64,000 bases of DNA from a virus: IMG/VR virus record IMGVR_UViG_3300028840_006907, positions 160,001-224,000 of that record, one strand, 5' to 3'. Both the position numbers and the translations under genes were made by a program. Below the pieces are notes generated by a model, which was given only the letters and a program-made list of their open reading frames with translations, did no database searches and was not told where the DNA came from. Below, piece by piece: positions 4,344-48,085 of this stretch (position 1 is its first letter; each line of letters begins with the position of its first letter).

Positions 4344-6209
4344 TTATGACGCTTCGACTTCTTCTATGAATTCTTGCTCTGCAGGTTCTGGAACTGGTTC
4401 TGTTACCTGTTCTTCGACCTGGGGAGATTCTTTAGGTTTTGTGGAAGTCATCATATTAGACACATTCTTCACTACATTTGGAAGATTATCACCTAATCCT
4501 GCTTCTTTTAATAATTGATCTACAACAGGAGCCTGAGCGCGATATCCAAGAAGTTGATCCAATAAAGATTGAGTAGAAAAACCTCCTGCAGACATTTTTG
4601 ACCCACCGTTACCATTACTATGGCCATTGCTACCGGTCAAACCTGATACGTTGATAACTTTGAAAGCTTCAATTTTTTCAAGGGGTTTTACACTGGATTC
4701 AATTACTGCTGATATGTGTTCAATTATTTGGAGTTTTACACGCATATCAACAATGTCTTTAGAGAGCCTGTTTTCAGCTTCATTGAGTTTTTCCTGACCT
4801 TCAGCTTCGACTTCGTATTTTCTTTCATCGGCATCAGCTTGAATTTTGATAGCCTCAGCTTTGGCTTTGGCTTCAATTTTGATAGCCTCAGCACGATCTT
4901 GAGCTGCTTCTTTTTCAGCCTGTGCAAGAACTTTAATTTTGGCTGCATCTGATCCGGCTACTTCTTCAGCTCTAATAATTGTAATTTCTCTGGCACGATT
5001 AGCAATTTCTTTTTCACGAGCGGTGGTTACTTTTTCCTCTGCAGAAATAGCGAGTGCTCTAGCTTCATTTGCTTCCTGATCAGCCAAAGAGGTTTCTTTA
5101 GATTTATTAGCAACTTCAATATCTCTTTCCTGTTCAGCAAGTTTTATTGCTTTCTGTTTTTCGATGGTAGCTGACTCTACTGCTTGTTCTTTAACAATAG
5201 TAGCTGATTCAATTGCTTGTTCTTTTTCAATATTGGCTTCTTGTAAAGCTTTTTCTTTTATAATATTTGCTTCGGCAATGGCTTGTTCTTTTCTAATATT
5301 CTGTTCTTCAAGAGCTTTGGTAGTTTCGATTGTTTTCTTTTTAACTTCTTTTTCAGATTCTATCCTTGCTTCTTGGGCTATCTTATTTTGTTCAGCATTA
5401 AATTTTTCTTTTGTGGCATTTTCTTCTGCTGTCCTAGTAGCAATTTCACGTTCTTGTTCAAGTCTAGAATACTCTTTTTCTTTATTAATTTTTAAAGTCT
5501 GTTGTTCAGCTTGAAGATTTTTTGTTTCAATTTTTACTAGATTATCTCTTTCAATCTCATTACGTTCTTTTCTACGCTCTTCGATGATTCTAGTTAATGC
5601 TGTCAATCCCTCAGCATCAAAAGCATTATTCTCATTGAAGTGCTCTCTACTGGTTTGATCAAAACCTGTAAGTGACACAGTTTCAAGCTCTAAGCCATTT
5701 TTCTTAAGGTCTTCCAGAACATTGTTTTGGACTTTTTGCACAAAATCAGCACGTTGCTCATGCAGTTCTCTCATTTGCATTTGAGCAGCAACAGCTCTTA
5801 AGGCGTCAACGAATTTACCTTCAATAAGTTCACGTAGTTTCTCTGGGTCAAGAGTGCGGTCACCAAGAGTTTGAGCGGCATTTGCTATGGAATCAGCTTC
5901 TGGTTGTACCCGCATATAAAACTCTACAAGAACGTCAACTCTCATACGATCTTTTGTAATTAATGCGTCCTTTTCATTTCTTCTTACCGGTAATTTTAAA
6001 GTACTAAGTTTTACCCAGGTTATTTGATGAAGTACAGGTAATACTACTGCTCCACCTTCTTTTATAACTTTTTTCTTGCCCATACCAGTACGGACAAAAG
6101 CCATATCAGATGAAGCTTTTACGTACATCCTAGCAATAATTAATCCTATAACAATTAGTGCCACTAGGATTATACCTGCCATAATTAAAATAGGCATAAG
6201 GTTTTCCAT
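4344..6209 (-). CDS. SPFH/band-7 (flotillin-like) protein with long repetitive coiled coil
   Basis: N-terminal TM helix then SPFH-domain-like sequence (VRTGMGKKKVIKEGGAVVLPVLHQ...), long E/K/A-rich coiled coil with internal repeats (EKEQAIESATIVKEQAVESATIEKQKAI). SD AAAGGGA upstream of start. Confidence 0.7.
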   Translation of the reverse strand: MENLMPILIMAGIILVALIVIGLIIARMYVKASSDMAFVRTGMGKKKVIKEGGAVVLPVLHQITWVKLSTLKLPVRRNEKDALITKDRMRVDVLVEFYMRVQPEADSIANAAQTLGDRTLDPEKLRELIEGKFVDALRAVAAQMQMRELHEQRADFVQKVQNNVLEDLKKNGLELETVSLTGFDQTSREHFNENNAFDAEGLTALTRIIEERRKERNEIERDNLVKIETKNLQAEQQTLKINKEKEYSRLEQEREIATRTAEENATKEKFNAEQNKIAQEARIESEKEVKKKTIETTKALEEQNIRKEQAIAEANIIKEKALQEANIEKEQAIESATIVKEQAVESATIEKQKAIKLAEQERDIEVANKSKETSLADQEANEARALAISAEEKVTTAREKEIANRAREITIIRAEEVAGSDAAKIKVLAQAEKEAAQDRAEAIKIEAKAKAEAIKIQADADERKYEVEAEGQEKLNEAENRLSKDIVDMRVKLQIIEHISAVIESSVKPLEKIEAFKVINVSGLTGSNGHSNGNGGSKMSAGGFSTQSLLDQLLGYRAQAPVVDQLLKEAGLGDNLPNVVKNVSNMMTSTKPKESPQVEEQVTEPVPEPAEQEFIEEVEAS

Positions 6210-11711: not shown

Positions 11712-12353
11712 ATGAAAAATTTGGGCAAAACAATTGATCGATTAATCTCAATTGACCAGGGTCTTGAAAAATCTTTAAAACCCATAAAAAACAAATGGAA
11801 ACGATGGCCTAAAAGAACTATGAACTATTGGGCTGAACTTCTGGAAGTTTTAAATTCGGATGATTTGATGGAGCATCCTGATCGTGATAAAATGAGTCAA
11901 GTTCTTAATGATGCCAAAAAAAGGAAACGTCCTAATTATTCTTTTGAAGTAATATCAATGCATGATAGGATTGTAGGTCCTTTAACAGGTCTTTTAGCTG
12001 ATAAAATAAGACGTTTGGATCTCAGATCAATAAAAATAGGAAGAGACCGTGCTGAGGCTAATATGACGCATAATTTAAAGATGCAGATTGATGTGGCACG
12101 AAGAGAGCAACTTTTAGAAATTGAAACCAAAAAAATATGGGTTGCTTTAAGAGATGAATTTAAATTATGGACAAAGCCTGGTTATTACAATATCAAAGTT
12201 TCAACTGAAAATAATATCCTTTATATGGTGGAACAACTCCCACAACCTCAGTTGGTCGGACCAGGTGTAATAAAGATGAATCCGGATATGTTAAAAAAAT
12301 TTTTTGATTTTATGGGGATGGATCCTCCCCCCGAACTTTTTGGAGGTAAATAG
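11712..12353 (+). CDS. hypothetical protein
   Basis: 213-aa ORF, first gene of a three-gene plus-strand island. Confidence 0.3.
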   Translation: MKNLGKTIDRLISIDQGLEKSLKPIKNKWKRWPKRTMNYWAELLEVLNSDDLMEHPDRDKMSQVLNDAKKRKRPNYSFEVISMHDRIVGPLTGLLADKIRRLDLRSIKIGRDRAEANMTHNLKMQIDVARREQLLEIETKKIWVALRDEFKLWTKPGYYNIKVSTENNILYMVEQLPQPQLVGPGVIKMNPDMLKKFFDFMGMDPPPELFGGK

Positions 12354-12889
12354 TGATCAGAGCATTAAGAGTAGTTGAAGCATATTTAAAAGAAGCCTAT
12401 GATTTCAGCTCAGTCCAGGCTGAATTTCCTGAGAAGATAGCCCAGGAGCTTCGGGATTGGGGGTATAAACATATTCCTGAAGAAGCTCTTTCTGGTGACG
12501 GGTTTGAAGATGATAAACATGTGACTATTAAGTACGGAATCCATATTAATGATTTTACTGAAATAAGAGATCTGTTTAAAGATGAAAAACCGATAGAGAT
12601 GGTCCTTGGTAAAATGACCCTTTTTACTTCAAGTCCTGATTTTGATGTATTGAAAATTGATATTAAATCACCGGCTCTGCATCGATTAAACAAAGCTGTA
12701 TCAAAAAATTTTGAAGTCACAGATACACATCCAGAATACCTACCCCATTGCACAATAGCATATGTGAAGAAAGGTGCTGCAGATCCCTTTAATGGCGATA
12801 CTACATTTGAGGGTCGTAAGGTAATATCAGATTTAATTCTTTTTTCAGGAAAAGATAATCGTCATACGGAATTTAAATTGGTTAAATAA
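12353..12889 (+). CDS. 2H phosphoesterase (LigT/2'-5' RNA ligase / cyclic phosphodiesterase family)
   Basis: Two H-x-T-x motifs (DKHVTIKYG and LPHCTIAYV) at the spacing expected for the 2H fold. Confidence 0.55.
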   Translation: MIRALRVVEAYLKEAYDFSSVQAEFPEKIAQELRDWGYKHIPEEALSGDGFEDDKHVTIKYGIHINDFTEIRDLFKDEKPIEMVLGKMTLFTSSPDFDVLKIDIKSPALHRLNKAVSKNFEVTDTHPEYLPHCTIAYVKKGAADPFNGDTTFEGRKVISDLILFSGKDNRHTEFKLVK

Positions 12890-13681
12890 ATGAAATACGA
12901 TGTGATCATAATAATAGGTGGTGGTATTAATAAAGACGGTGACCTTCCTGAAGAGGCATCATTACGGGTCAAGGAAGGGGTAAAGAAGTATAATGATGGT
13001 ATTGCCCCGAAAATATTGATGTCAGGGCGTTGGGGTAAAGATATAGATTTTACTCCGAAGAAGAAAGAAGCAATAGCTATGAAAGAGATGGCTGTTGATT
13101 TAGGTGTACCATCCAAGGATATTTTAATTGAAACTAGGGCTATGGATACTTTAAGTAATGCTAAAGAATCTAAAAAAATTATTGATAATAGTGATTGGAA
13201 AAATATTCTTGTTGTAACCTTGGATTTTCATAAGGATCGGACTGAAAAAATATTTAGAGATATTTTCGGTGATTCTTATAATATAGATGTCTATGGAGGT
13301 AAGAGTAATTTAGAAGAGTCATTATATAAGAGACATCTGAAAATGGAAGATTTAAAAATGAAAAGATATGAGAGACAGAAAAAGTTTTCTTCTATAATAG
13401 ATACACTTGATCAAATTGCTGATGATATAGAATTACAGGATAAAAGAATTGCTCTGGCAATAGATATTGTCAGTGATCAAATAGAGAAGAGGGCTTTTTT
13501 CAATCAATCCACTTGGTTACCTGGGCGTTGTACAAGAACATATCCAAATAGGAATCAGAAATCTCATAGTAGATATGAGAAAAGAGCTACTTATATATGT
13601 ATTGCTTGTAATTTACGAAGATATTCGGCGAGTGAGTATTGCCCTCGATGCGGTCATTCTATGCAAAAGATCTTCTGCTAG
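12890..13681 (+). CDS. DUF218/YdcF-like domain protein with C-terminal zinc ribbon
   Basis: IIIIGGGINKDG...ILMSGRWG pattern typical of YdcF/ElyC-like domain; C-terminal CIACN...CPRCGH. Confidence 0.4.
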   Translation: MKYDVIIIIGGGINKDGDLPEEASLRVKEGVKKYNDGIAPKILMSGRWGKDIDFTPKKKEAIAMKEMAVDLGVPSKDILIETRAMDTLSNAKESKKIIDNSDWKNILVVTLDFHKDRTEKIFRDIFGDSYNIDVYGGKSNLEESLYKRHLKMEDLKMKRYERQKKFSSIIDTLDQIADDIELQDKRIALAIDIVSDQIEKRAFFNQSTWLPGRCTRTYPNRNQKSHSRYEKRATYICIACNLRRYSASEYCPRCGHSMQKIFC

Positions 13682-18769: not shown

Positions 18770-19723
18770 TTAGAAGCTCAGTACTCTCACCTGGCATGGT
18801 GCCTCCTTTTCAAGTTGATATAATTTGTGATATAACAATTTTTCTTTTTCAGAAATTATTGAAGGTATTTTTATTTTAATAATTGCTTTAAAGTCCCCGA
18901 CTTCTTTTTTGTATGTTATTCCTTTGTTTTTGAATTCTATTTTCTGCCCGTATTGTGTCCCAGGAGGGATTTTTATGTTCACAGTTTTTTTGAAAACTTT
19001 AAGATTAAACGAATCTCCAAGTATTGCTTGAATAGGGCTAATGGTTATTTTTCCAATAATATCAAGGCCATTTACATAGTATCTGGGATCTTCTTTAATA
19101 ATTAGACTTACAATTAAATCGCCAGGAGATCCCCCAGGAATACAATTGCCAAGTTTAGGTATTCTTATGATTTCTAAAAGTGGGTTAAGGGTTATTGTAT
19201 GCTGAATTATCTCAGGCTGGAGAGCAGTTCCATTACATATCTTACATTGATCTCCTTCAGGAATTCTTCCCATACCTTTGCAATATGTACATTTCTTTTT
19301 AGATCCTAGTATCAGTGATAATCCCTGTAAGCCAGTGCCATTACAGTATACACATTTTTTTAATAGCCTCTCTGCTGAACCTGTGCCCGAGCAATCTTTG
19401 CATGGCCCTTTTCTTTTAATTACAATTAATTTATTTATACTTTGAATTAGGTCCATTCTGGTCACGTTTATAGAGACTTTTAAATTGCTTCCTTGTTTGA
19501 AACTTCTTTTCTTTACGAATTGGTTGTCATATTTTTTTCTTTTATTCTCATCTTTTAAAACTTCATAGGCATCTGTGGCTTCTCTGAATTTTTCTTCAGC
19601 AATTTTATCATCAGGGTTTTTGTCAGGATGATACTTTATAGCCAACTTTCGATAAGCGACTTTAATCTCTATATCTGTAGCATCTTCTGGTATATTTAAG
19701 ATCTTATAATAGTTCTTATTCAT
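18770..19723 (-). CDS. dnaJ: DnaJ/Hsp40-type co-chaperone
   Basis: J domain with HPD motif (KYHPDKNP) and four CxxCxGxG zinc-finger repeats. Confidence 0.85.
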   Translation of the reverse strand: MNKNYYKILNIPEDATDIEIKVAYRKLAIKYHPDKNPDDKIAEEKFREATDAYEVLKDENKRKKYDNQFVKKRSFKQGSNLKVSINVTRMDLIQSINKLIVIKRKGPCKDCSGTGSAERLLKKCVYCNGTGLQGLSLILGSKKKCTYCKGMGRIPEGDQCKICNGTALQPEIIQHTITLNPLLEIIRIPKLGNCIPGGSPGDLIVSLIIKEDPRYYVNGLDIIGKITISPIQAILGDSFNLKVFKKTVNIKIPPGTQYGQKIEFKNKGITYKKEVGDFKAIIKIKIPSIISEKEKLLYHKLYQLEKEAPCQVRVLSF

Positions 19724-36526: not shown

Positions 36527-38488
36527 CTACTCTTCTTCGTCAAATAGTGAATAACTTTCGTATTTTATTTTTTTGTTCTCAACTTTAGTTGTTTCTGGTT
36601 CCGGTTTAGGAGTATCTCCAGTTATACCTAACATCTCAAGGAAAATTTTTTCATTAATTACCTGAACTCCGTATTTCTCAGCTTTCTGGGATTTGTTTGA
36701 ACCTTTATCTTCATTACAAACCAAATATGATAAATTTTTAACAACGGAATTCTTATTAGTACCACCATTTTCTTTCACTAATCCTTGGTAATGCCCACGT
36801 GGATGTTCCATTGATCCGGTAAAACAAAAAGACAGTCCGTCCAGAATACCTTTTTTCTCTTCTTCAACAGTAATGACTTTAAGTAATTCTGTGATCTCAG
36901 ATTTATATTTGATTAATCCCATGACTACATTATTTGCTGAAATGTCAGAAAATCCTTTTAAGGCTTTTATATCATCCACACTTTTTTCCATTAAATTCTC
37001 TATTGTACCAAATGCCTTTATTAATTCTTCTGAGGTTCCTTCAGATATCCCAGGGATTCCTAGAGCAGATAAAAACACAACAGGGGTAAGAGTATATGTT
37101 TTATCAATATTATTCATGACTTTTTGAGCAGATTTTTTACCCCATTTTTCAATTACAGCTATATCCTCTTCTTGAAGTCTGTATATATCGAAAATTTTAT
37201 TCAGTTTCCCAGCTTCACTTAATTTGTCAGCTAAGCTTTCACCAAATTCCTCTATTTTAGTAACTTTGATCCAATTTAAAATTCGGTAGAATATTTTTTT
37301 GGGACAATCATCATTTTCACATATGAGTTTGATACCATCATTAAGAAGCTTAGAATTACAGCTAGGGCACTCTGTTGGGATCTCAATAGGGTTACCCATA
37401 TGAGTAAGAACTTTGGTTATCTTTGGGATTATATCCCCGGCTTTAACTACCATTACAACATCACTACGACCTATACCAAGTCTCTTTATTTCGGCAATAT
37501 TATGCAAGGTTGCTTTTTTAACTTCTGACCCATCGATTATTACTGGTTCCAAGTGAGCCAGAGGTGTAACTACTCCTGTTCTCCCTACTTCCCATGTTTC
37601 TTCATTGAATATTGTAGCTGCACCAGGGGGTTCGAATTTCCAGGCTATTTGGGCTTTAGGTCTGTTTCTGGTAACACCCATTTTTTTCTGAACTTGGTAA
37701 GAGTTCACTTTTATGACAGCACCATCAATATCGAAAGGAAGTTTTTCTCGTTCTACAGCTATTTTTTCGAAAGCATCTACGATTTCCTCTTTTTTACCCA
37801 CTACAGTGAAAGGAATGTTAAACCCAAGTTCATCAAGTCGTTTTATTTTATCCTGTTCATCAAGAGGTTCTGTTAAATCATATGCCATTAAGAATAGGTA
37901 TTTACTGAATTTTCCATCCAGTCTTCTACTAATACCAGAAGCAGCATTTCGTGGATTACTATATTTATCATTTTCAGATAAAACTGTATTGATTTCTTTG
38001 AAATGAGTTTTACTTAATAATATTTCAGCTCTAACAGATCCGGTAAAGTCAGGCATTTCAGATCTTAATACTTTCATATGATCTACATTCTCTTTTATAT
38101 TTTCCCCAGTAGTACCATCACCTCTGGTAATAGCTTTGACCAGTTTCGATTCTTCGTGATCAAGAGAGAGGCTTAATCCATCTAATTTATACTGTAAGAT
38201 ATAAACAGTATCAGGTTTGAATTTCGATGCCCACTTGATAAATTCTTCTTTACTATGTACTTTTTCAAGGCTACCCATGAATATACCATGTTTAGCTTTT
38301 TCCCAATGGGAGGATGGCTCATGACCTACCTTTTCAAAGTAAGGGTGATTAGGAGCCTGTTTTTTAACAAGTGCTCTTAAAGTATCATACTCTTCATCAG
38401 TCATAATTGGATGACCAGAAGATTCATAGGCTTTATCTGCAGCAATAAGTTTATTTATGCTTAATTGTATATCTATCTGTTTTCCCAT
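36527..38488 (-). CDS. ligA: NAD-dependent DNA ligase
   Basis: Adenylation motif KLDGLS, OB and zinc-finger (CPSC...C) regions, C-terminal BRCT-like tail; 653 aa. Confidence 0.9.
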   Translation of the reverse strand: MGKQIDIQLSINKLIAADKAYESSGHPIMTDEEYDTLRALVKKQAPNHPYFEKVGHEPSSHWEKAKHGIFMGSLEKVHSKEEFIKWASKFKPDTVYILQYKLDGLSLSLDHEESKLVKAITRGDGTTGENIKENVDHMKVLRSEMPDFTGSVRAEILLSKTHFKEINTVLSENDKYSNPRNAASGISRRLDGKFSKYLFLMAYDLTEPLDEQDKIKRLDELGFNIPFTVVGKKEEIVDAFEKIAVEREKLPFDIDGAVIKVNSYQVQKKMGVTRNRPKAQIAWKFEPPGAATIFNEETWEVGRTGVVTPLAHLEPVIIDGSEVKKATLHNIAEIKRLGIGRSDVVMVVKAGDIIPKITKVLTHMGNPIEIPTECPSCNSKLLNDGIKLICENDDCPKKIFYRILNWIKVTKIEEFGESLADKLSEAGKLNKIFDIYRLQEEDIAVIEKWGKKSAQKVMNNIDKTYTLTPVVFLSALGIPGISEGTSEELIKAFGTIENLMEKSVDDIKALKGFSDISANNVVMGLIKYKSEITELLKVITVEEEKKGILDGLSFCFTGSMEHPRGHYQGLVKENGGTNKNSVVKNLSYLVCNEDKGSNKSQKAEKYGVQVINEKIFLEMLGITGDTPKPEPETTKVENKKIKYESYSLFDEEE

Positions 38489-38805
38489 TATTCTCCCTCG
38501 TCGTTATCGGTGTCATCATCATCTATATCAATTAAGATGTAACTGAATTGATCAAGTGTTTGTAAAGAGTGCCCAATTAATTTTGTTATATAATCTAAAA
38601 GTTTTTCCTTTAAAGGATCTTCCGATTTAAGAATGGTATAAGAATCTAGTGATTTACCAAATACATCGGATATAGATTTCAGTTTAAACTTCACAGCATC
38701 TAAAACCTGAAGTAAAGAATCGTTGTTCTGTTGGTCACTATTAAGTTTTTCCATATACTCCTTAAATTTATCATCCCCATATTCAGGGTCATTATTATTA
38801 CTCAT
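38488..38805 (-). CDS. small acidic protein
   Basis: 105 aa, ends in DDDDTDNDEGE. Confidence 0.3.
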   Translation of the reverse strand: MSNNNDPEYGDDKFKEYMEKLNSDQQNNDSLLQVLDAVKFKLKSISDVFGKSLDSYTILKSEDPLKEKLLDYITKLIGHSLQTLDQFSYILIDIDDDDTDNDEGE

Positions 38806-39086
38806 TTTTGTCTATTCCTTTAAAATTGATAGAAGCTATCCTATATAATGATATGGAACTAACAAGGGTTTTCGATAAGTAAAAAATAAAAAAAGTTTTT
38901 AAGTCTAATGGTTTGAGTAAGTTACAAGAGGTAATTTTAGGTTTAAAAAAACCATGTTTTTTGATAAGAATATATAATATAGAGTATAAATAATCCTGTT
39001 TTTATGATTTACTAAAAAAGTAATTAATATAAATAGCTATATGAATATGTATATATGAATATAGTTATTTATTTTTTCCTGAATAA

Positions 39087-39149
39087 GGAAAAGTAAAATA
39101 AAAAAGAACAGAAAAATAGTAGTAGAAGAAGAGAGGAATGAGGATTAAA
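39087..39149. repeat. 63-bp direct repeat, copy 1
   Basis: Identical to 40188..40250. Confidence 0.9.
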
Positions 39150-39395
39150 AAAGATATAGATGATATAAAAAGAACCAATATAATGAATTTAATAGTAAAA
39201 ATAAAAATTTAAGTCACCAATATAATGAATAAACTTATGAACAAAGTAAAAATATAACCTATAAAATCTTCAAAAAAAGTTAAATCATAACCTTATTTAT
39301 TCGAACCAGTTATAACAAAAAAAATAAAACCTTAAAAATTTTACTTATCACTTTACCTTTCTAACTTTGTATAAATAGTAGGAGGTAAATTTGAA

Positions 39396-39770
39396 ATGAA
39401 CACAATTTTTATCACAGGTTTGGATAAAATCTCTATTAAAAGATTCATCCAATTTATTCTAAAATACTTAAATGATTACCAAGTTGGTACACTTCATTAC
39501 TTAATGAGTGAAGAGAGCATAAACTATTACATCGAAGATTTTTCAAATAAATTTCAAAAAAGGATCTTCTCTTACTTCTTAAGGAAATCAGGAGATTCTA
39601 TACCCAATCTTCCTACTTCAATAACTGATAGTGCTGATCTTATCATATGGTTTGATTTATACAGTACTAAACCAATAGTTAAACAGAGTAAGACAGAACC
39701 GCATATTCTTAAAGGGGCTCTTATGGATTGGGCAAGACACATAGAGAAATTAGAGAAAGGGGGATTGTAG
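39396..39770 (+). CDS. hypothetical protein
   Basis: 124-aa ORF with AGGAGG SD; lies between the 63-bp repeats. Confidence 0.35.
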   Translation: MNTIFITGLDKISIKRFIQFILKYLNDYQVGTLHYLMSEESINYYIEDFSNKFQKRIFSYFLRKSGDSIPNLPTSITDSADLIIWFDLYSTKPIVKQSKTEPHILKGALMDWARHIEKLEKGGL

Positions 39771-40160
39771 AAAGCCAGTTTGAGGAGGATATTAGGGCTC
39801 AACCCTGTTTGAGGACCACCGGGGCACACGAGGCCGTTGTAACGATGTAAGTCGGTAGTGCCGTGTCATTTAGGAGTTCGATCCAGGGGGATAGATCGTG
39901 CCATGACTCCTGTCAGTATACCGTCATAGGTAAAACCGAGTTACTCAAGATATATTATACCGGTCTGAAGGGTTCATCAAACATGAGAAGTTTACATGGG
40001 TACAAGCCGTTTCTAAGAGTACCTCAAAATTGAATTTTAGCTGTTTTAGGAAACAAAGCCTTACTATGCATGTAGTAAGCGAAATGTCGCAGGCTCGTGC
40101 CTCGCTAGTGACCCAGCGGGGATGGTGAAGACAGAAAGGTGCATTAAAATTGAGTAATAG
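39771..40160. ncRNA. candidate structured RNA of unknown class (GC-rich, hairpin-rich non-coding segment)
   Basis: Local GC well above flanks, several perfect short hairpins (e.g. cttacta-tgcatg-tagtaag), no convincing ORF. Confidence 0.3.
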
Positions 40161-40187
40161 ATGTATCAATAAATAAAAAAATCAATA

Positions 40188-40250
40188 GGAAAAGTAAAAT
40201 AAAAAAGAACAGAAAAATAGTAGTAGAAGAAGAGAGGAATGAGGATTAAA
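40188..40250. repeat. 63-bp direct repeat, copy 2
   Basis: Identical to 39087..39149, spacing 1101 bp. Confidence 0.9.
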
Positions 40251-40376
40251 TAGTGAATTAAATCAATGAGTTACAGTGAGTGCTACTGTGTAATTTAAAG
40301 CGGATTTAAATTTAAAATTAGTACTAAAAAATACAGTATAGTCTAAAAATAAAGGACTATTTATTAGGAATAAATT

Positions 40377-40559
40377 ATGTGTAATGGTTTATCTATTAAG
40401 GAAGATTTACCTAAAGTTGATATCCATGTTGAGTGTGACTGTGGAGAAGAATTAGACATCGATTTACATGGATGGAGTCTGTCTGTGTACGGTGGACTAG
40501 TATTTAAATGCCCTTCCTGTGAGTCAGAAATAAAGACCTATATGGTAGAGAGTGTGTGA
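40377..40559 (+). CDS. small zinc-ribbon protein
   Basis: CDCG...CPSC. Confidence 0.3.
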   Translation: MCNGLSIKEDLPKVDIHVECDCGEELDIDLHGWSLSVYGGLVFKCPSCESEIKTYMVESV

Positions 40560-44002: not shown

Positions 44003-47000
44003 ATGGAGATCGAGATGCTATCACCTTTTGGGAAAATTGTCTGGGAAGATCGATACGCGCTGAAGGATGAATATGGGAAATTAATTGAAAAAAATATTTT
44101 AGAAACATTTCGTAGAGTTGCTACAGCTATTGCTTCTAAGGAAAAAGACTCTAAGTTTTGGGGTGACAAATTTTATAAGATTATGGCAGACCAATCTTTC
44201 TGTCCAGCCGGTAGAGTCCTAGCCCATTCAGGTACACATTATTCTCAACTTCTCAATTGTTTTGTTCTCCCATTCCAGGATGACAGTCTGGAAGAGATTA
44301 TGAACACTGGTAAAAACATGGCTATTGTTCAAAAATATGGTGGGGGCTGTATTGGAGGTGAGAGTAATATTCTTACTAATAAAGGTGTTGTACCATTAAA
44401 AGAAATTGTTGAAGGAAATGATAAAGATCTTAAAGTACTATCTTTTAATTCTGATAATAATGAGATGGAATACTGTGATATTTTAGAAAGACATACAAAT
44501 AATTTATCTGGGGATCGTGTATTCGAAATTGAGTTCGATAATACAAAAGGCGGTGTTGCATCAAGAATAAGAGCTAGCGATTGGCATCCCTTTTTTGTTT
44601 TTGATGGAGTAAAGATAATCCAAGTACGTGCTGATGAGTTAAAACCTGGGATGGCTGTAATAGGCTCAACTGATTTAGGGGTAAATTTAAAGTATGATTC
44701 TATGGGTTGGTTATTAGGTTATATTGCTGGTGACGGTTCGATTGATACTAATAATGGGGAAGATGTACGTGTTAGGGTAGTAGATGACAGTGAAGAGTGT
44801 GTTAAACGTGCAGCAGGAATATTTAATACATCTTATAAACCTTCTAGTGATAAACGTTATAAAGTAAAAATGTGGGCTTGTGAGGTTTATGGAGATGAAG
44901 CTGGGATGGTAAAGGATGAGTTTGGGGGGTATCAAACTAGTGGTACAAAACATGTCCCGAATTCTATCTGGGAAAGTTCTCCTGAAAGAAGACTTTCTTT
45001 TTTAGTTGGGCATATTGATGCAGATGGCTGGTTTAATAAAGAGAAAAAAAGATTTGAAGTTTTTACTGTTAGTAATGAATTGGCAAAAGAATTAATAGCC
45101 TTAGCTGGTGGTCTTGGTATTCGGGCTTCACTACGTTTTAGAAAATCACGTAAAGAAAATGAGCAAGATGGTTGGGAAGTTAGGTATAGTAGCTCTCAAT
45201 TTTCGATTGATTTAATTGTTAATATTAGTGCAAAACATAACCCACTCAATGCTGGATGGGTTATGGGTACTATAAATTTATCTCATGAATGGAAAGATCA
45301 TTTAAAAAGCGTAGGTATTAATGTTTATACAAATAAAGCATGGAGAAAGTCAATTGAAATTGATGGTGTAAAAAGATCATTAGTTTATTGGTTACAGCAT
45401 GGTAAAGCTTCAAGAGAAACTGCTGCTTCTATTCTTAGAGTGTGTGGTGAAGAAAAGATAGCAAGTGCTGTTTTATCTAGCCAAATAGTACTCTCTTCAA
45501 AGGCTACAGGAATTTCAGAAACATTATATGATCTCACTATTGCAAAAAATCAAACATATATGGCATCAGACCCAACTACAGGGGCTTATGTTGTTGTGCA
45601 TAATACAGGATTTAATTTCAGTAGGCTCAGACCATCAGGTTCATATATAAAAGGTGTCAATGGTCGTAGTAGTGGACCCATCGGATTTATTAGCATGATG
45701 TCAACTATCTCAGAAATAATTGAACAAGGCGGGACCCGCAGGGGCGCGTCAATAGGGCTTCTTGAGGCATGGCACCCTGATTTATGGGAGTTTGTTTCTT
45801 ATAAAACTGAACATAATTGGGAATGTCTTCGAGAATTTATTGATGTGAATGATTACGATAAATGGGAATCATTTAAATATGAAAATTTATATAAATGGCA
45901 AATGTTCAATGTCTCTGTAGGAATTACTGATGATTTCTTAGAATCTGTTAAAAACAATAAGGAATGGGTATTTAATTGGAAAGGGGAAGAGTGGGAACTT
46001 TATACCGTTATTTTTAAGAAATATATAAGTGAAGGTAATTACAAAGAATTAACATTTGAAGTTACAGCTAACAATGATCCTACTGCTATATGGAAAGTAA
46101 GAAAGAAAATACCTTATCCTACTGGTAGTGATATATTTGAAGTTACATCAAAAAGAAAAGTAAAAGCTTCCGAGATCTGGGATAGACTGTGTTATAATGC
46201 CTGGGCTGATGGATGTCCGGGCATTATCAATTTAAGTACTGCTCGTAGGATGCATAATTTAGAATATGCCTTCCCTATAGAAGCTACTAATCCTTGTTTT
46301 ACTGGAGATTGTAAATTGGATACTATCAATGGTCCTATGACTTTTGAAAGTCTTGAGGATAAAGAAATTGATCTTAAAACTCCATATGGTTCTATTGAAA
46401 AAGGTAGAATTTGGAAAACAGGGGTAAAATCTACTATCAGATTAAAATTTAATGATGGTAGTTCAATAACGGTTACTCCCGATCAACTATTTTTGTGTCA
46501 TAAAGGAAAAGAGATACGGGCTAAGGATTGTTTAAATAAATGTTTAAATACTTCGGATATACCGTTAAGTGTAGTTTCAATAGAGGATAATGGTGAACAA
46601 GAGGTCTATGATTTTTCAATCCCATGTAATTGGGGTATAGTTAATGGAATAGTGGCTCATAATTGTGGGGAGCAACCTTTAGGGGGATTTAGTTCTTGCA
46701 ATTTGTCAAGCATACTCCTTCCTAATTTTGTTATAGAGGATACCAAATCAGTTGATTGGGATAAACTTAAAGAGGTTGTTCATACTGCTGTCAGATTTTC
46801 GGATAATGTTGTAGATAATTGTGAATTTCCGATTCCGGAAATTAAAGATAAAGCATATCAGGAAAGACGTGTCGGACTAGGTACTATGGGAGTTCATGAC
46901 ATGTTAATCAAAATGGGACTAGATTATGATAGTGATGTGGGTCGTGATGCTGTGGAAGAGGTATTAAGATTTATTCGGGATGAAGCTTATAAAGCATCAA

Positions 47001-48085
47001 TTAAAATTGCGGAAGAGAAGGGGTCTTTTCCAGCCTTTAAAAAGAAAGAAATTTTAAAGAGTGGGTTTATAAAAACACTTCCACCAGAGATCGTAAAATT
47101 GATTGGGAAAAATGGTATTAGAAATAGTGCCCTTTTATCCCAGGCACCCACAGGATCGATCTCAGCGTTAAATAACGTTTCATCTGGGTGTGAACCATGG
47201 TATTCATTATCCTTCCAAAGAAACACTCGTTTGGGTTCCTATGAAGATGGTTGTCCAACTTATATTGAATGGAAGAAAAATAACCCCGAAGCTCCCATAC
47301 CATCCTATTTTAAAACAGCTCCAGAAATAAGCCCTACAGATCACGTAAAAATGCTTATTCTTTTTAGTAAATACATTGATTCAGCGGTGAGTAAGACAGT
47401 TAATCTCCCAAATCATACAACAGTAGATACAGTTAAAGAGACATTTATTTATGCTATGGAAAATGGTGTAAAAGGTCTGACTGTTTTTCGGGATGGTTCT
47501 AAAGAAGGTGTTTTAGTAAATAAACAAAACAAGAAAAAAATTGAAGAAATAATTCCATATACAGATAAAGAAGATTGTTATGAAAATGTAATGTCTCCTA
47601 AAAAGCGGGGAGATAAAACAACTGGTTCAACATATCGTATTCATATGCAAAGTCATAATTTATATGTTACAGTTAATCGAAATAGAGATGGTGATTTAGT
47701 AGAGCTTTTTACTACAGTTGGAGAGAGTAAAAAACCTAATGCACATCATACTAGTGGTGTTGAAGATTCCTGGGCAGAGGGTCTTGGTAAAATAATTAGT
47801 CTAGCTCTGCGTGCAGGAGTGAAACCTAGTTCAATAATTCGGAATTTAAAAAATATTCCATCAGATAAACCAGTATTTGTTACTATCGGTGATAATGAAA
47901 ATTCTGAGCATATACCTTCTCCACCTCATGCTATTGCTAGGGTAATAGAAGATGAGATGAGTAATGGTGAAGAAGAAATTAATATTCAAGGAGGTTATTG
48001 CTCAGAATGTGGCTCAACAAATACTAAAAAGAAGAGTCCCACTTGTTACGAGTGTTTTGACTGTGGCTACGTAGCTTGTGGTTAA
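44003..48085 (+). CDS. nrdJ: class II (adenosylcobalamin-type) ribonucleotide reductase interrupted by two inteins
   Basis: Extein motifs QKYGGG|TGFNFSRLRPSG, GGTRRGA, TNP|CGEQPLGG; C-terminal Cys cluster; 1360 aa before splicing, about 818 aa after. Confidence 0.85.
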   Translation: MEIEMLSPFGKIVWEDRYALKDEYGKLIEKNILETFRRVATAIASKEKDSKFWGDKFYKIMADQSFCPAGRVLAHSGTHYSQLLNCFVLPFQDDSLEEIMNTGKNMAIVQKYGGGCIGGESNILTNKGVVPLKEIVEGNDKDLKVLSFNSDNNEMEYCDILERHTNNLSGDRVFEIEFDNTKGGVASRIRASDWHPFFVFDGVKIIQVRADELKPGMAVIGSTDLGVNLKYDSMGWLLGYIAGDGSIDTNNGEDVRVRVVDDSEECVKRAAGIFNTSYKPSSDKRYKVKMWACEVYGDEAGMVKDEFGGYQTSGTKHVPNSIWESSPERRLSFLVGHIDADGWFNKEKKRFEVFTVSNELAKELIALAGGLGIRASLRFRKSRKENEQDGWEVRYSSSQFSIDLIVNISAKHNPLNAGWVMGTINLSHEWKDHLKSVGINVYTNKAWRKSIEIDGVKRSLVYWLQHGKASRETAASILRVCGEEKIASAVLSSQIVLSSKATGISETLYDLTIAKNQTYMASDPTTGAYVVVHNTGFNFSRLRPSGSYIKGVNGRSSGPIGFISMMSTISEIIEQGGTRRGASIGLLEAWHPDLWEFVSYKTEHNWECLREFIDVNDYDKWESFKYENLYKWQMFNVSVGITDDFLESVKNNKEWVFNWKGEEWELYTVIFKKYISEGNYKELTFEVTANNDPTAIWKVRKKIPYPTGSDIFEVTSKRKVKASEIWDRLCYNAWADGCPGIINLSTARRMHNLEYAFPIEATNPCFTGDCKLDTINGPMTFESLEDKEIDLKTPYGSIEKGRIWKTGVKSTIRLKFNDGSSITVTPDQLFLCHKGKEIRAKDCLNKCLNTSDIPLSVVSIEDNGEQEVYDFSIPCNWGIVNGIVAHNCGEQPLGGFSSCNLSSILLPNFVIEDTKSVDWDKLKEVVHTAVRFSDNVVDNCEFPIPEIKDKAYQERRVGLGTMGVHDMLIKMGLDYDSDVGRDAVEEVLRFIRDEAYKASIKIAEEKGSFPAFKKKEILKSGFIKTLPPEIVKLIGKNGIRNSALLSQAPTGSISALNNVSSGCEPWYSLSFQRNTRLGSYEDGCPTYIEWKKNNPEAPIPSYFKTAPEISPTDHVKMLILFSKYIDSAVSKTVNLPNHTTVDTVKETFIYAMENGVKGLTVFRDGSKEGVLVNKQNKKKIEEIIPYTDKEDCYENVMSPKKRGDKTTGSTYRIHMQSHNLYVTVNRNRDGDLVELFTTVGESKKPNAHHTSGVEDSWAEGLGKIISLALRAGVKPSSIIRNLKNIPSDKPVFVTIGDNENSEHIPSPPHAIARVIEDEMSNGEEEINIQGGYCSECGSTNTKKKSPTCYECFDCGYVACG
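44348..45604 (+). mobile_element. intein 1 (419 aa) with LAGLIDADG homing-endonuclease domain
   Basis: Starts with Cys after QKYGGG, ends VVHN before Thr; two LAGLIDADG motifs (LGYIAGDGSID, LVGHIDADGWF). Confidence 0.8.
46295..46663 (+). mobile_element. intein 2 (123-aa mini-intein, no endonuclease domain)
   Basis: Inserted between TNP and CGEQ of the active-site motif; starts CFTGD, ends VAHN before Cys. Confidence 0.75.

Follow-up and report, generated by a model that had tools for sequence, protein, structure and literature searches.

In a stretch of 64,000 nucleotides (nt) from a virus (IMG/VR record IMGVR_UViG_3300028840_006907, positions 160,001 to 224,000; hereafter the window), the gap of 1.57 kb at which transcription switches strands (38806-40376) contains a cassette of two genes: an open reading frame for a protein of 124 amino acids (ORF124), followed by an RNA of approximately 390 nt encoded on the plus strand. 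Both genes lie between two identical repeats of 64 nt, are preceded by an iterated motif that is specific to the lineage, and keep this layout in distant relatives. That the RNA gene exists is almost certain. For the gap as a whole, we see about an even chance that it is an early control region of a huge phage carrying this previously unrecognised cassette, with the RNA acting in trans as a ribonucleoprotein (RNP). An earlier note on this DNA had described the region as mostly non-coding and AT-rich. The AT-richness is confirmed, but about half of the 1.57 kb is in fact taken up by ORF124 (375 nt) and the structured RNA.

The RNA was placed at 39774..40165 on the plus strand, beginning no more than a few bases from the ORF124 stop codon, on the basis of a block conserved in the relatives, RNAalifold folding and covariation. 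This block contains the highest-GC 300-nt windows of the entire 64 kb (approximately 46%). A multi-branch domain makes up the 5' part (approximately 39778-40029) and a domain of four hairpins the 3' part (40040-40121), after which a conserved tail with GGTGAAGACAGAAAGGTGC follows. The relatives were obtained only via exact-protein look-ups; the labels L002 to L016 used below denote their contigs, which carry an ORF124-type cassette and several of which are Logan contigs or unitigs. For the RNA alignment we fetched contigs with ORF124 homologues of 52-66% identity. Every fetched contig shows a GC-rich block directly downstream of the homologue, after which the GC content plunges to 10-18%. The blocks of the relatives consist of long invariant stretches, interrupted by length-variable insertions at fixed points, and no reading frame across them is consistently open.

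The structure is strongly supported by covariation. RNAalifold on seven relatives yields 78 pairs in 14 helices, and 32 of these pairs are changed on both sides. Standard pairs fill 96.5% of the cells; sliding the 3' partners by 1-3 columns lowers this to 37-43%. These slid controls retain only 2-5 compensatory pairs, and none of 500 shuffles matched. An extra nested helix, in which columns 100-103 of alignment A2 pair with columns 327-330, displays covariation among G-C, A-U and G-U. A covariance model of the central domain (R1) finds one significant copy in the window, at 127 bits, and gives weak matches (E ~0.007) at the expected place and on the expected strand in L015 and L016, where ORF124 is 36-38% identical. 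Since MAFFT aligned these two contigs poorly on sequence alone, the covariance model was used for them instead. They keep the helices of the RNA with different bases, and in the resulting alignment of 12 distinct sequences 21 of the 30 pairs of the central domain are compensatory. Single-sequence folding is uninformative (the z-score is not significant on either strand), so that covariation was needed to recognise the structure. Compensatory pairs beyond the controls, together with the lack of a conserved reading frame, are what is expected of a structured non-coding RNA in general. As for the strand, the reverse complement folds less well, at -37 kcal/mol compared with -61 kcal/mol for the forward sequence, whose structure includes 56 G-U cells; this places the RNA on the plus strand.

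No match to Rfam 15 reached the gathering threshold anywhere in the 64 kb. At E<=10 nothing relevant appeared in 38800-40400 or in the seven relatives, where the hits were noise (Oskar_OES, SpR14 and snoRNA models). The unmatched families include RNase P, tmRNA, group I and group II introns, GOLLD, ROOL, OLE, 6S and riboswitches, and ARAGORN detected neither a tRNA nor a tmRNA. A group I intron was considered and rejected, because there is no model match and the helix order does not fit. No new relatives were found in GenBank phages (BLAST), in IMG/VR (DNA and protein pattern scans and scans with the ORF124 alignment) or in species-representative genomes (pattern scan). A pattern scan of metagenome contigs returned a single contig, which was already in the set of relatives. 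Literature searches revealed no description of such an RNA.

ORF124 (39396..39770, plus strand) encodes a conserved protein with a predicted alpha/beta fold resembling that of P-loop NTPases; the canonical Walker A motif of these enzymes (GxxxxGK[ST]) is absent. It is a real protein family, because there are seven close clusters, and 76 at E<=1e-3 among 1.84 billion representatives (nearly all of 85-160 amino acids), and because the AlphaFold (AF2) model reaches a predicted local distance difference test (pLDDT) score of 84. No match was obtained in Pfam, PHROG, PADLOC or NCBIfam; a role as defence or anti-defence protein was dropped given the absence of PADLOC and NCBIfam matches. In all nine lineages for which DNA is available (the window, L003-7, L008, L009, L010/11, L012, L013, L015 and L016) the conserved block follows directly after the ORF124 homologue, and this linkage holds while the identity of ORF124 decreases from 66% to 36%. 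A tenth contig, for which we have gene calls only, shows a gene-free gap of approximately 490 nt at the same place, after a gene call of 45 amino acids. The strict physical linkage in every relative supports a ribonucleoprotein of the RNA with ORF124. In the reading we favour, both would be expressed as one rightward transcription unit from the AT-rich region, and the RNA would be a stable molecule that acts in trans as part of this RNP.

The cassette is bracketed by perfect direct repeats of 64 nt. The left copy (39086..39149, plus strand) matches the right copy (40187..40250, plus strand) at 64 of 64 positions at a distance of 1101 nt, so that the repeats of 63 bp announced in the earlier note are real and in fact one base longer. 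A third copy does not occur in the 64-kb window. On the plus strand the repeat is purine-rich (86% purine over 39101-39150), and the purine-rich tract of the right copy aligns with those of L008, L009, L010 and L003; an A-rich spacer (40166..40186, plus strand) lies between the RNA and this copy. Flanking repeats also occur in the relatives. In L003 they are 63/64 identical and 1158 nt apart, and in L016 they comprise approximately 50 nt at approximately 90% identity, as read by eye from the sequence. The right flank of L010 recurs as the first 30 nt of L011, the two ends of L015 show the overlap expected of a repeat-bounded unitig, and the Logan unitigs L002, L013 and L015 end where the flanking repeats would lie. 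Between lineages the repeats are homologous but diverged, whereas within each genome they match. The bracketing repeat is thus conserved as a feature and not as a sequence, in concerted evolution. Because the copies are identical within a genome yet diverged between lineages, gene conversion or a shared constraint is indicated.

The complete order of repeat, iterated motifs, ORF124, RNA and repeat recurs in relatives with ORF124 identities of 36-66%. Moreover, a contig with 35% identity keeps the wider synteny, in which the ligase and a small ORF lie leftward and ORF124, the RNA and the clamp loader rightward. In terms of the RNP, the repeats would be two copies of one cis-acting site, the first ahead of the cassette and the second ahead of the rightward replisome operon, and might be kept identical within the genome by gene conversion or recombination. 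Three other functions of the 64-mer were rejected. As a general promoter it lacks further copies in the 64 kb as well as a common sigma-70 consensus across lineages; as coding sequence it lacks a start codon upstream of either copy; and for pairing with the RNA the RNAduplex energies are no better than those of shuffled repeats in three lineages.

Identical repeats around a compact unit might also point to an excisable or mobile cassette (1037 nt plus one repeat, 1101 bp), in which recombination between the repeats produces a small circle that re-inserts in Campbell style and thereby keeps the copies identical. Such a process would not exclude the other readings. The 100% identity over 64 nt, combined with divergence between lineages, is in line with it, as are the RecA, RuvC-like, RecD2 and SbcCD-like proteins encoded next door and the de Bruijn unitigs of exactly cassette length in several samples. 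The unitig lengths are, however, explained by k-1 overlaps. L002, a Logan contig of 1097 nt, equals window positions 39120-40216 and so comprises the cassette together with k-1 = 30 nt from either copy of the repeat (1037 + 2x30 = 1097); it was therefore rejected as evidence of a free circle. The cassette also occupies the same syntenic site in all relatives and holds no recombinase. Taken together, we consider excision very improbable. Logan contigs of approximately 0.95-1.1 kb (L002, L011, L013, L015), which hold the cassette plus approximately 30 nt of each repeat as an effect of the k-mer graph, offer a fast way of spotting further cassettes in Logan assemblies.

Downstream of the right repeat lies another conserved element (40262..40345, plus strand). 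The alignment shows AATCAAT, then a hairpin region (TTACAGTG...ACTGT and AATTTAAA-GCGGA-TTTAAATT) and finally a promoter-like stretch before the rightward operon; for the hairpin element RNAalifold gives 15 pairs in five sequences, six of them compensatory. Its role might be that of a terminator for the RNA, an operator or a leader of the rightward operon. The first gene of this operon, ORF60 (40377..40559, plus strand, according to the gene call in the source contig), encodes a small zinc-ribbon-like protein (CxC...CxxC) without a family match, and genes of similar size hold the same position in relatives. The next sizeable rightward gene encodes a protein of 266 amino acids, for which an AcrVA2-like fold is the sole structural match.

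Given this arrangement, the RNA might act in cis, either as a long 3' untranslated region (UTR) of ORF124 or as a leader or riboswitch-like sensor for the replisome operon (ORF60, the AcrVA2-like protein, clamp loader and ribonucleotide reductase). The RNA is always located between ORF124 and the rightward operon, in L016 the repeat is directly followed by the gene for the delta' subunit of DNA polymerase III (Pol III), and no terminator was detected between RNA and operon. On the other hand, the approximately 230 nt from the RNA to ORF60 contain the repeat, the separately conserved hairpin element and promoter-like sequence. Furthermore, a structure of approximately 390 nt and 14 helices goes far beyond known leaders, and no riboswitch family matches. 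We regard a role in cis as quite improbable.

Upstream of the cassette, the divergent intergenic DNA between the gene for a protein of 105 amino acids and the left repeat (38806..39085) belongs to the lowest-GC 300-nt windows of the 64 kb (18-21% GC). Within 38776-39500 the most AT-rich of these windows drop to 18% GC, against a mean of 32.8% (standard deviation 3.8), as would suit an AT-rich unwinding region. The stretch 38806..39085 probably holds divergent promoters and is also a candidate DNA-unwinding region; matches to sigma-70-like promoters are no more common here than in shuffles. A conserved element directly upstream of ORF124 (39306..39395, plus strand) emerges from the upstream alignment of seven relatives and consists of CCAGTTATAAC (39306-39316), followed by GTATAAATAGTAGGAGG (39369-39385), which combines a TATAAATA-like box with a Shine-Dalgarno sequence. 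From its sequence it may serve as a promoter.

Between the left repeat and ORF124, the 15-mer ACCAATATAATGAAT occurs exactly twice (39174-39188 and 39216-39230, plus strand) at a distance of 42 nt and nowhere else in the window, even when two mismatches are allowed. The pair is significant, as none of 1000 dinucleotide shuffles of the intergenic region reaches a repeat of 15 nt, and the two copies reported earlier at about 45 bp are thereby substantiated as candidate protein-binding sites (iteron or operator). The second motif put forward at that time, tatatgaata, corresponds to an 11-mer pair (TATATGAATAT at 39038/39052) and is at chance level: 244 of 1000 shuffles contain a local repeat of at least 11 nt. 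Relatives have iterated motifs of their own between the left repeat and ORF124, at a spacing of approximately 42-44 nt. At the position of the 15-mers L003 has a 31-mer twice with 44-nt spacing and L004 a unit of 44 nt three times, and L003 holds in addition a tandem array of six 28-nt units upstream of the left repeat. Between the repeat and ORF124 the 44-nt unit is found twice in L003 and three times in L004, a near-identical contig from another sample, which shows that the copy number of the iterated sites varies; the arrays of these two contigs lie at 1-180 and 330-404 in L003 and at 1-132 in L004. If the RNP is the correct reading, the 15-mers would be binding sites of a lineage-specific regulator.

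The earlier note considered the region a candidate replication origin with the classic signature of a bidirectional one. Several elements of this proposal hold. Gene orientation splits at 38806/39396, the switch itself comprising 38806-39395: over at least 38 kb to the left nearly all ORFs are on the minus strand, the sole exception being an island at 11.7-13.7 kb, and all ORFs in the 25 kb to the right are on the plus strand. The expected genes for replication and DNA metabolism are indeed found on either side. Leftward on the minus strand these are NAD-dependent ligase (LigA), RecD2 helicase, a dCMP-deaminase-like ORF, a RuvC-like resolvase, RecA and SbcCD-like proteins, and rightward on the plus strand Pol III delta' and delta, an intein-containing ribonucleotide reductase, thioredoxin and a tau/gamma-like clamp-loader subunit. 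A classical iteron-type origin would then have an initiator bind the repeats, the AT-rich DNA melt and forks leave both ways, co-oriented with transcription. The divergent genes, the most AT-rich DNA of the window, the 15-mer pair at four helical turns, the stronger arrays in relatives (28-nt unit six times, 44-nt unit two to three times), the surrounding replication and recombination genes and the conserved layout are all in favour of such an origin. So is, at first sight, the cumulative GC skew: over the 64 kb available of a replicon of 388 kb, the raw curve has its minimum at 38818.

The raw minimum is nevertheless misleading. The island of three plus-strand genes inside the otherwise minus-strand left arm (11712-13681) is a natural control for the skew, and its value of 0.22 equals that of the right arm (0.22). 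The sign of the skew is thus set by the coding strand, which explains the raw flip, and the flip cannot by itself indicate the polarity of replication. To obtain a neutral measure, we compared G and C at four-fold degenerate third positions. In the coding sense this skew amounts to -0.257 (95% interval -0.33 to -0.18) for the minus-strand genes of the left arm, +0.091 (0.02 to 0.18) for the plus-strand genes of the right arm and +0.091 (-0.125 to 0.263) for the island. Expressed on the plus strand, the values become +0.26, +0.09 and +0.09, respectively. Because the plus strand is G-rich at these sites on both arms, there is no mirror image at the switch, and the bidirectional reading is weakened by the criterion that the earlier note had set for its own refutation. 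The arm difference in the coding sense is seen in eight of eight codon families (Fisher p = 5e-11) and persists when only genes of one functional class, no more than approximately 11 kb from the switch, are compared (p = 2e-6). At four-fold sites the ratio of T to A moves in the same direction as that of G to C. One coding-strand term plus one constant plus-strand term fits all three gene sets, whereas a sign change at 39 kb does not.

An initiator or its sites are lacking as well. No cluster of DnaA boxes was found, so that the search for such boxes suggested in the earlier note came out negative, and there is no initiator-family match for ORF124, ORF60, the 266-amino-acid protein or the 105-amino-acid protein. 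ORF124 lacks a Walker A motif, and the 266-amino-acid neighbour was rejected as initiator since AcrVA2 is its only structural match. Where an iteron array would comprise at least three to four sites, this genome has two exact 15-mers, though as a significant pair; the relatives have a 31-mer twice, a 44-nt unit three times and a 28-nt unit six times. A classic bidirectional origin is therefore not supported, and we judge it improbable that forks leave this site in both directions. The AT-rich stretch may also serve as an origin, in particular as a unidirectional or transcript-primed one.

The composition suggests instead a uniform strand-specific mutational bias over at least 64 kb, such as unidirectional replication would give. 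This is compatible with rightward unidirectional replication from anywhere, this locus included, and leads to the main rival of the RNP: a transcript-primed unidirectional origin of the ColE1, T4 oriF/oriG or T7 type, where the RNA is a pre-primer and replication proceeds rightward only. The fold would then govern whether the RNA stays hybridised to the DNA just past its 3' end, where the A-rich and purine-rich tract (the right repeat) lies. Hybrids of purine RNA on pyrimidine DNA are the most stable ones, and in the window, L008, L009, L010 and L003 a long conserved structured RNA runs directly into an A-rich stretch of the transcribed strand, behind which a purine-rich one lies. At neutral sites the plus strand is enriched in G and T on both arms, as rightward replication round a circle would produce, the locus adjoins the replisome genes, and identical repeats 1.1 kb apart are reminiscent of the ori/crr pair of satellite phage P4. 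Several observations disagree with a pre-primer. In L016 the repeat lacks the purine-rich character, and we identified neither an antisense regulator nor an RNase H site or a G-run that would form a hybrid. Strongly conserved unpaired segments in an ornate multi-domain fold are less typical of primers than of catalytic RNAs or those of RNPs. Over more than 38 kb of the left arm, transcription would run against the forks, and a uniform strand bias has other possible sources. On balance we hold priming by this RNA to be unlikely.

Returning to the RNP, some points weigh against this reading too. A 3' UTR that acts in cis, or an RNA related to replication, would explain the linkage of RNA and ORF124 just as well. 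The covariation stems from few sequences (7-12), which are related to each other, and the ends of the RNA, its stability and its co-transcription with ORF124 are deduced from sequence. No promoter or terminator rises above shuffle expectation. Finally, the RNP does not account for what the 64-nt repeats do: these are purine-rich and lack structure, their complementarity to the RNA does not exceed that of shuffled repeats, and they contain no sigma-70 promoter that is consistent across lineages.

A more far-reaching version may be put forward tentatively. The RNA would then be the functional core of a new phage RNP with ORF124, possibly catalytic, in a cassette bracketed by recombination; in a variant it would be the pre-primer of a new RNA-primed origin in huge phages with bacterial-type Pol III replisomes. 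If either of these is true, the RNA represents a new class with a new role in huge-phage biology, and the pre-primer variant would reveal the way in which DNA synthesis is started in huge phages that have bacterial-type replisomes. Structured RNAs that are both large and ornate are rare, and with each new class new biochemistry has tended to come to light. The RNA described here combines strong covariation support with absence from Rfam and GenBank phages. It is moreover tied to an uncharacterised protein family (76 clusters) amid the replication and recombination block of a huge-phage clade, which provides a concrete RNA-protein pair to study. The locus is also a cautionary case, as a textbook-like origin signature (strand switch plus raw GC-skew minimum) vanishes at neutral sites.

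With respect to the wider setting, the gene content of the window is that of a huge phage, and positions 29396-49770 are base-for-base part of the JGI metagenome contig 3300017963|Ga0180437_10000019 (388,651 bp). The first leftward gene (38488-38805, minus strand) encodes the protein of 105 amino acids, which has a strongly acidic C-terminus (DIDDDDTDNDEGE) and only a weak PHROG match (phrog_31449, unknown function); one distant relative has a gene of similar size at its position. The ribonucleotide reductase (44003-48085, plus strand, 1360 amino acids) carries at least one intein, because its precomputed Pfam matches include intein-splicing and LAGLIDADG homing-endonuclease domains. The minus-strand genes at 4344-6209 and 18770-19723 encode a flotillin/SPFH-domain protein of 621 amino acids and a full DnaJ co-chaperone (J domain, zinc-finger domain and C-terminal domain), a pair that is unusual as phage cargo.

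A comparison with known systems places the RNA among several partial likenesses. Bacterial RNase P RNA is of similar size, and by eye a CR-I-like segment (GAUAGAAAGUCC against GAGGAAAGUCC) and the GGUGAAAGGGUGC region can be recognised. We rejected this identity, since the resemblance is limited to motifs seen by eye, no RNase P model matches even at E<=10 and the order of the helices is unlike the P1-P4 architecture. Iteron origins (lambda ori, plasmids and P4 ori/crr) share the AT-rich DNA, the direct motifs at helical-turn spacing, a distant second copy of the repeat as in P4 crr and the lineage-specific nature of the repeats. They differ in that the locus described here has only two 15-mers, no adjacent initiator gene and no skew reversal at neutral sites, and in that a protein gene and an RNA gene occupy the DNA between the repeats.

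In ColE1, the gene for a small accessory protein, Rom, lies near RNA II. ColE1 RNA II, T4 oriF/oriG and the primary origins of T7 resemble the locus in that a structured transcript comes to its end at a tract rich in AT or in purines, close to replication functions; for the ColE1 type a small accessory protein gene nearby can be added, and replication along the direction of transcription would fit the uniform strand bias. In contrast to these systems, there is no sequence or model match and no equivalent of the antisense RNA I was found.

GOLLD, ROOL, OLE and raiA, large ornate non-coding RNAs from bacteria and phages, are likewise RNAs of several hundred nt with many covarying helices, highly conserved unpaired stretches and an unknown function. 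Two of them, GOLLD and ROOL, are found in phages and prophages (PMC5737381, PMC12286853). The RNA of the cassette does not match the Rfam models of these four and is smaller, at approximately 390 nt; what sets it apart further is that it is strictly linked to the gene for a protein of 124 amino acids, bracketed by repeats and situated at a strand switch next to replisome genes.

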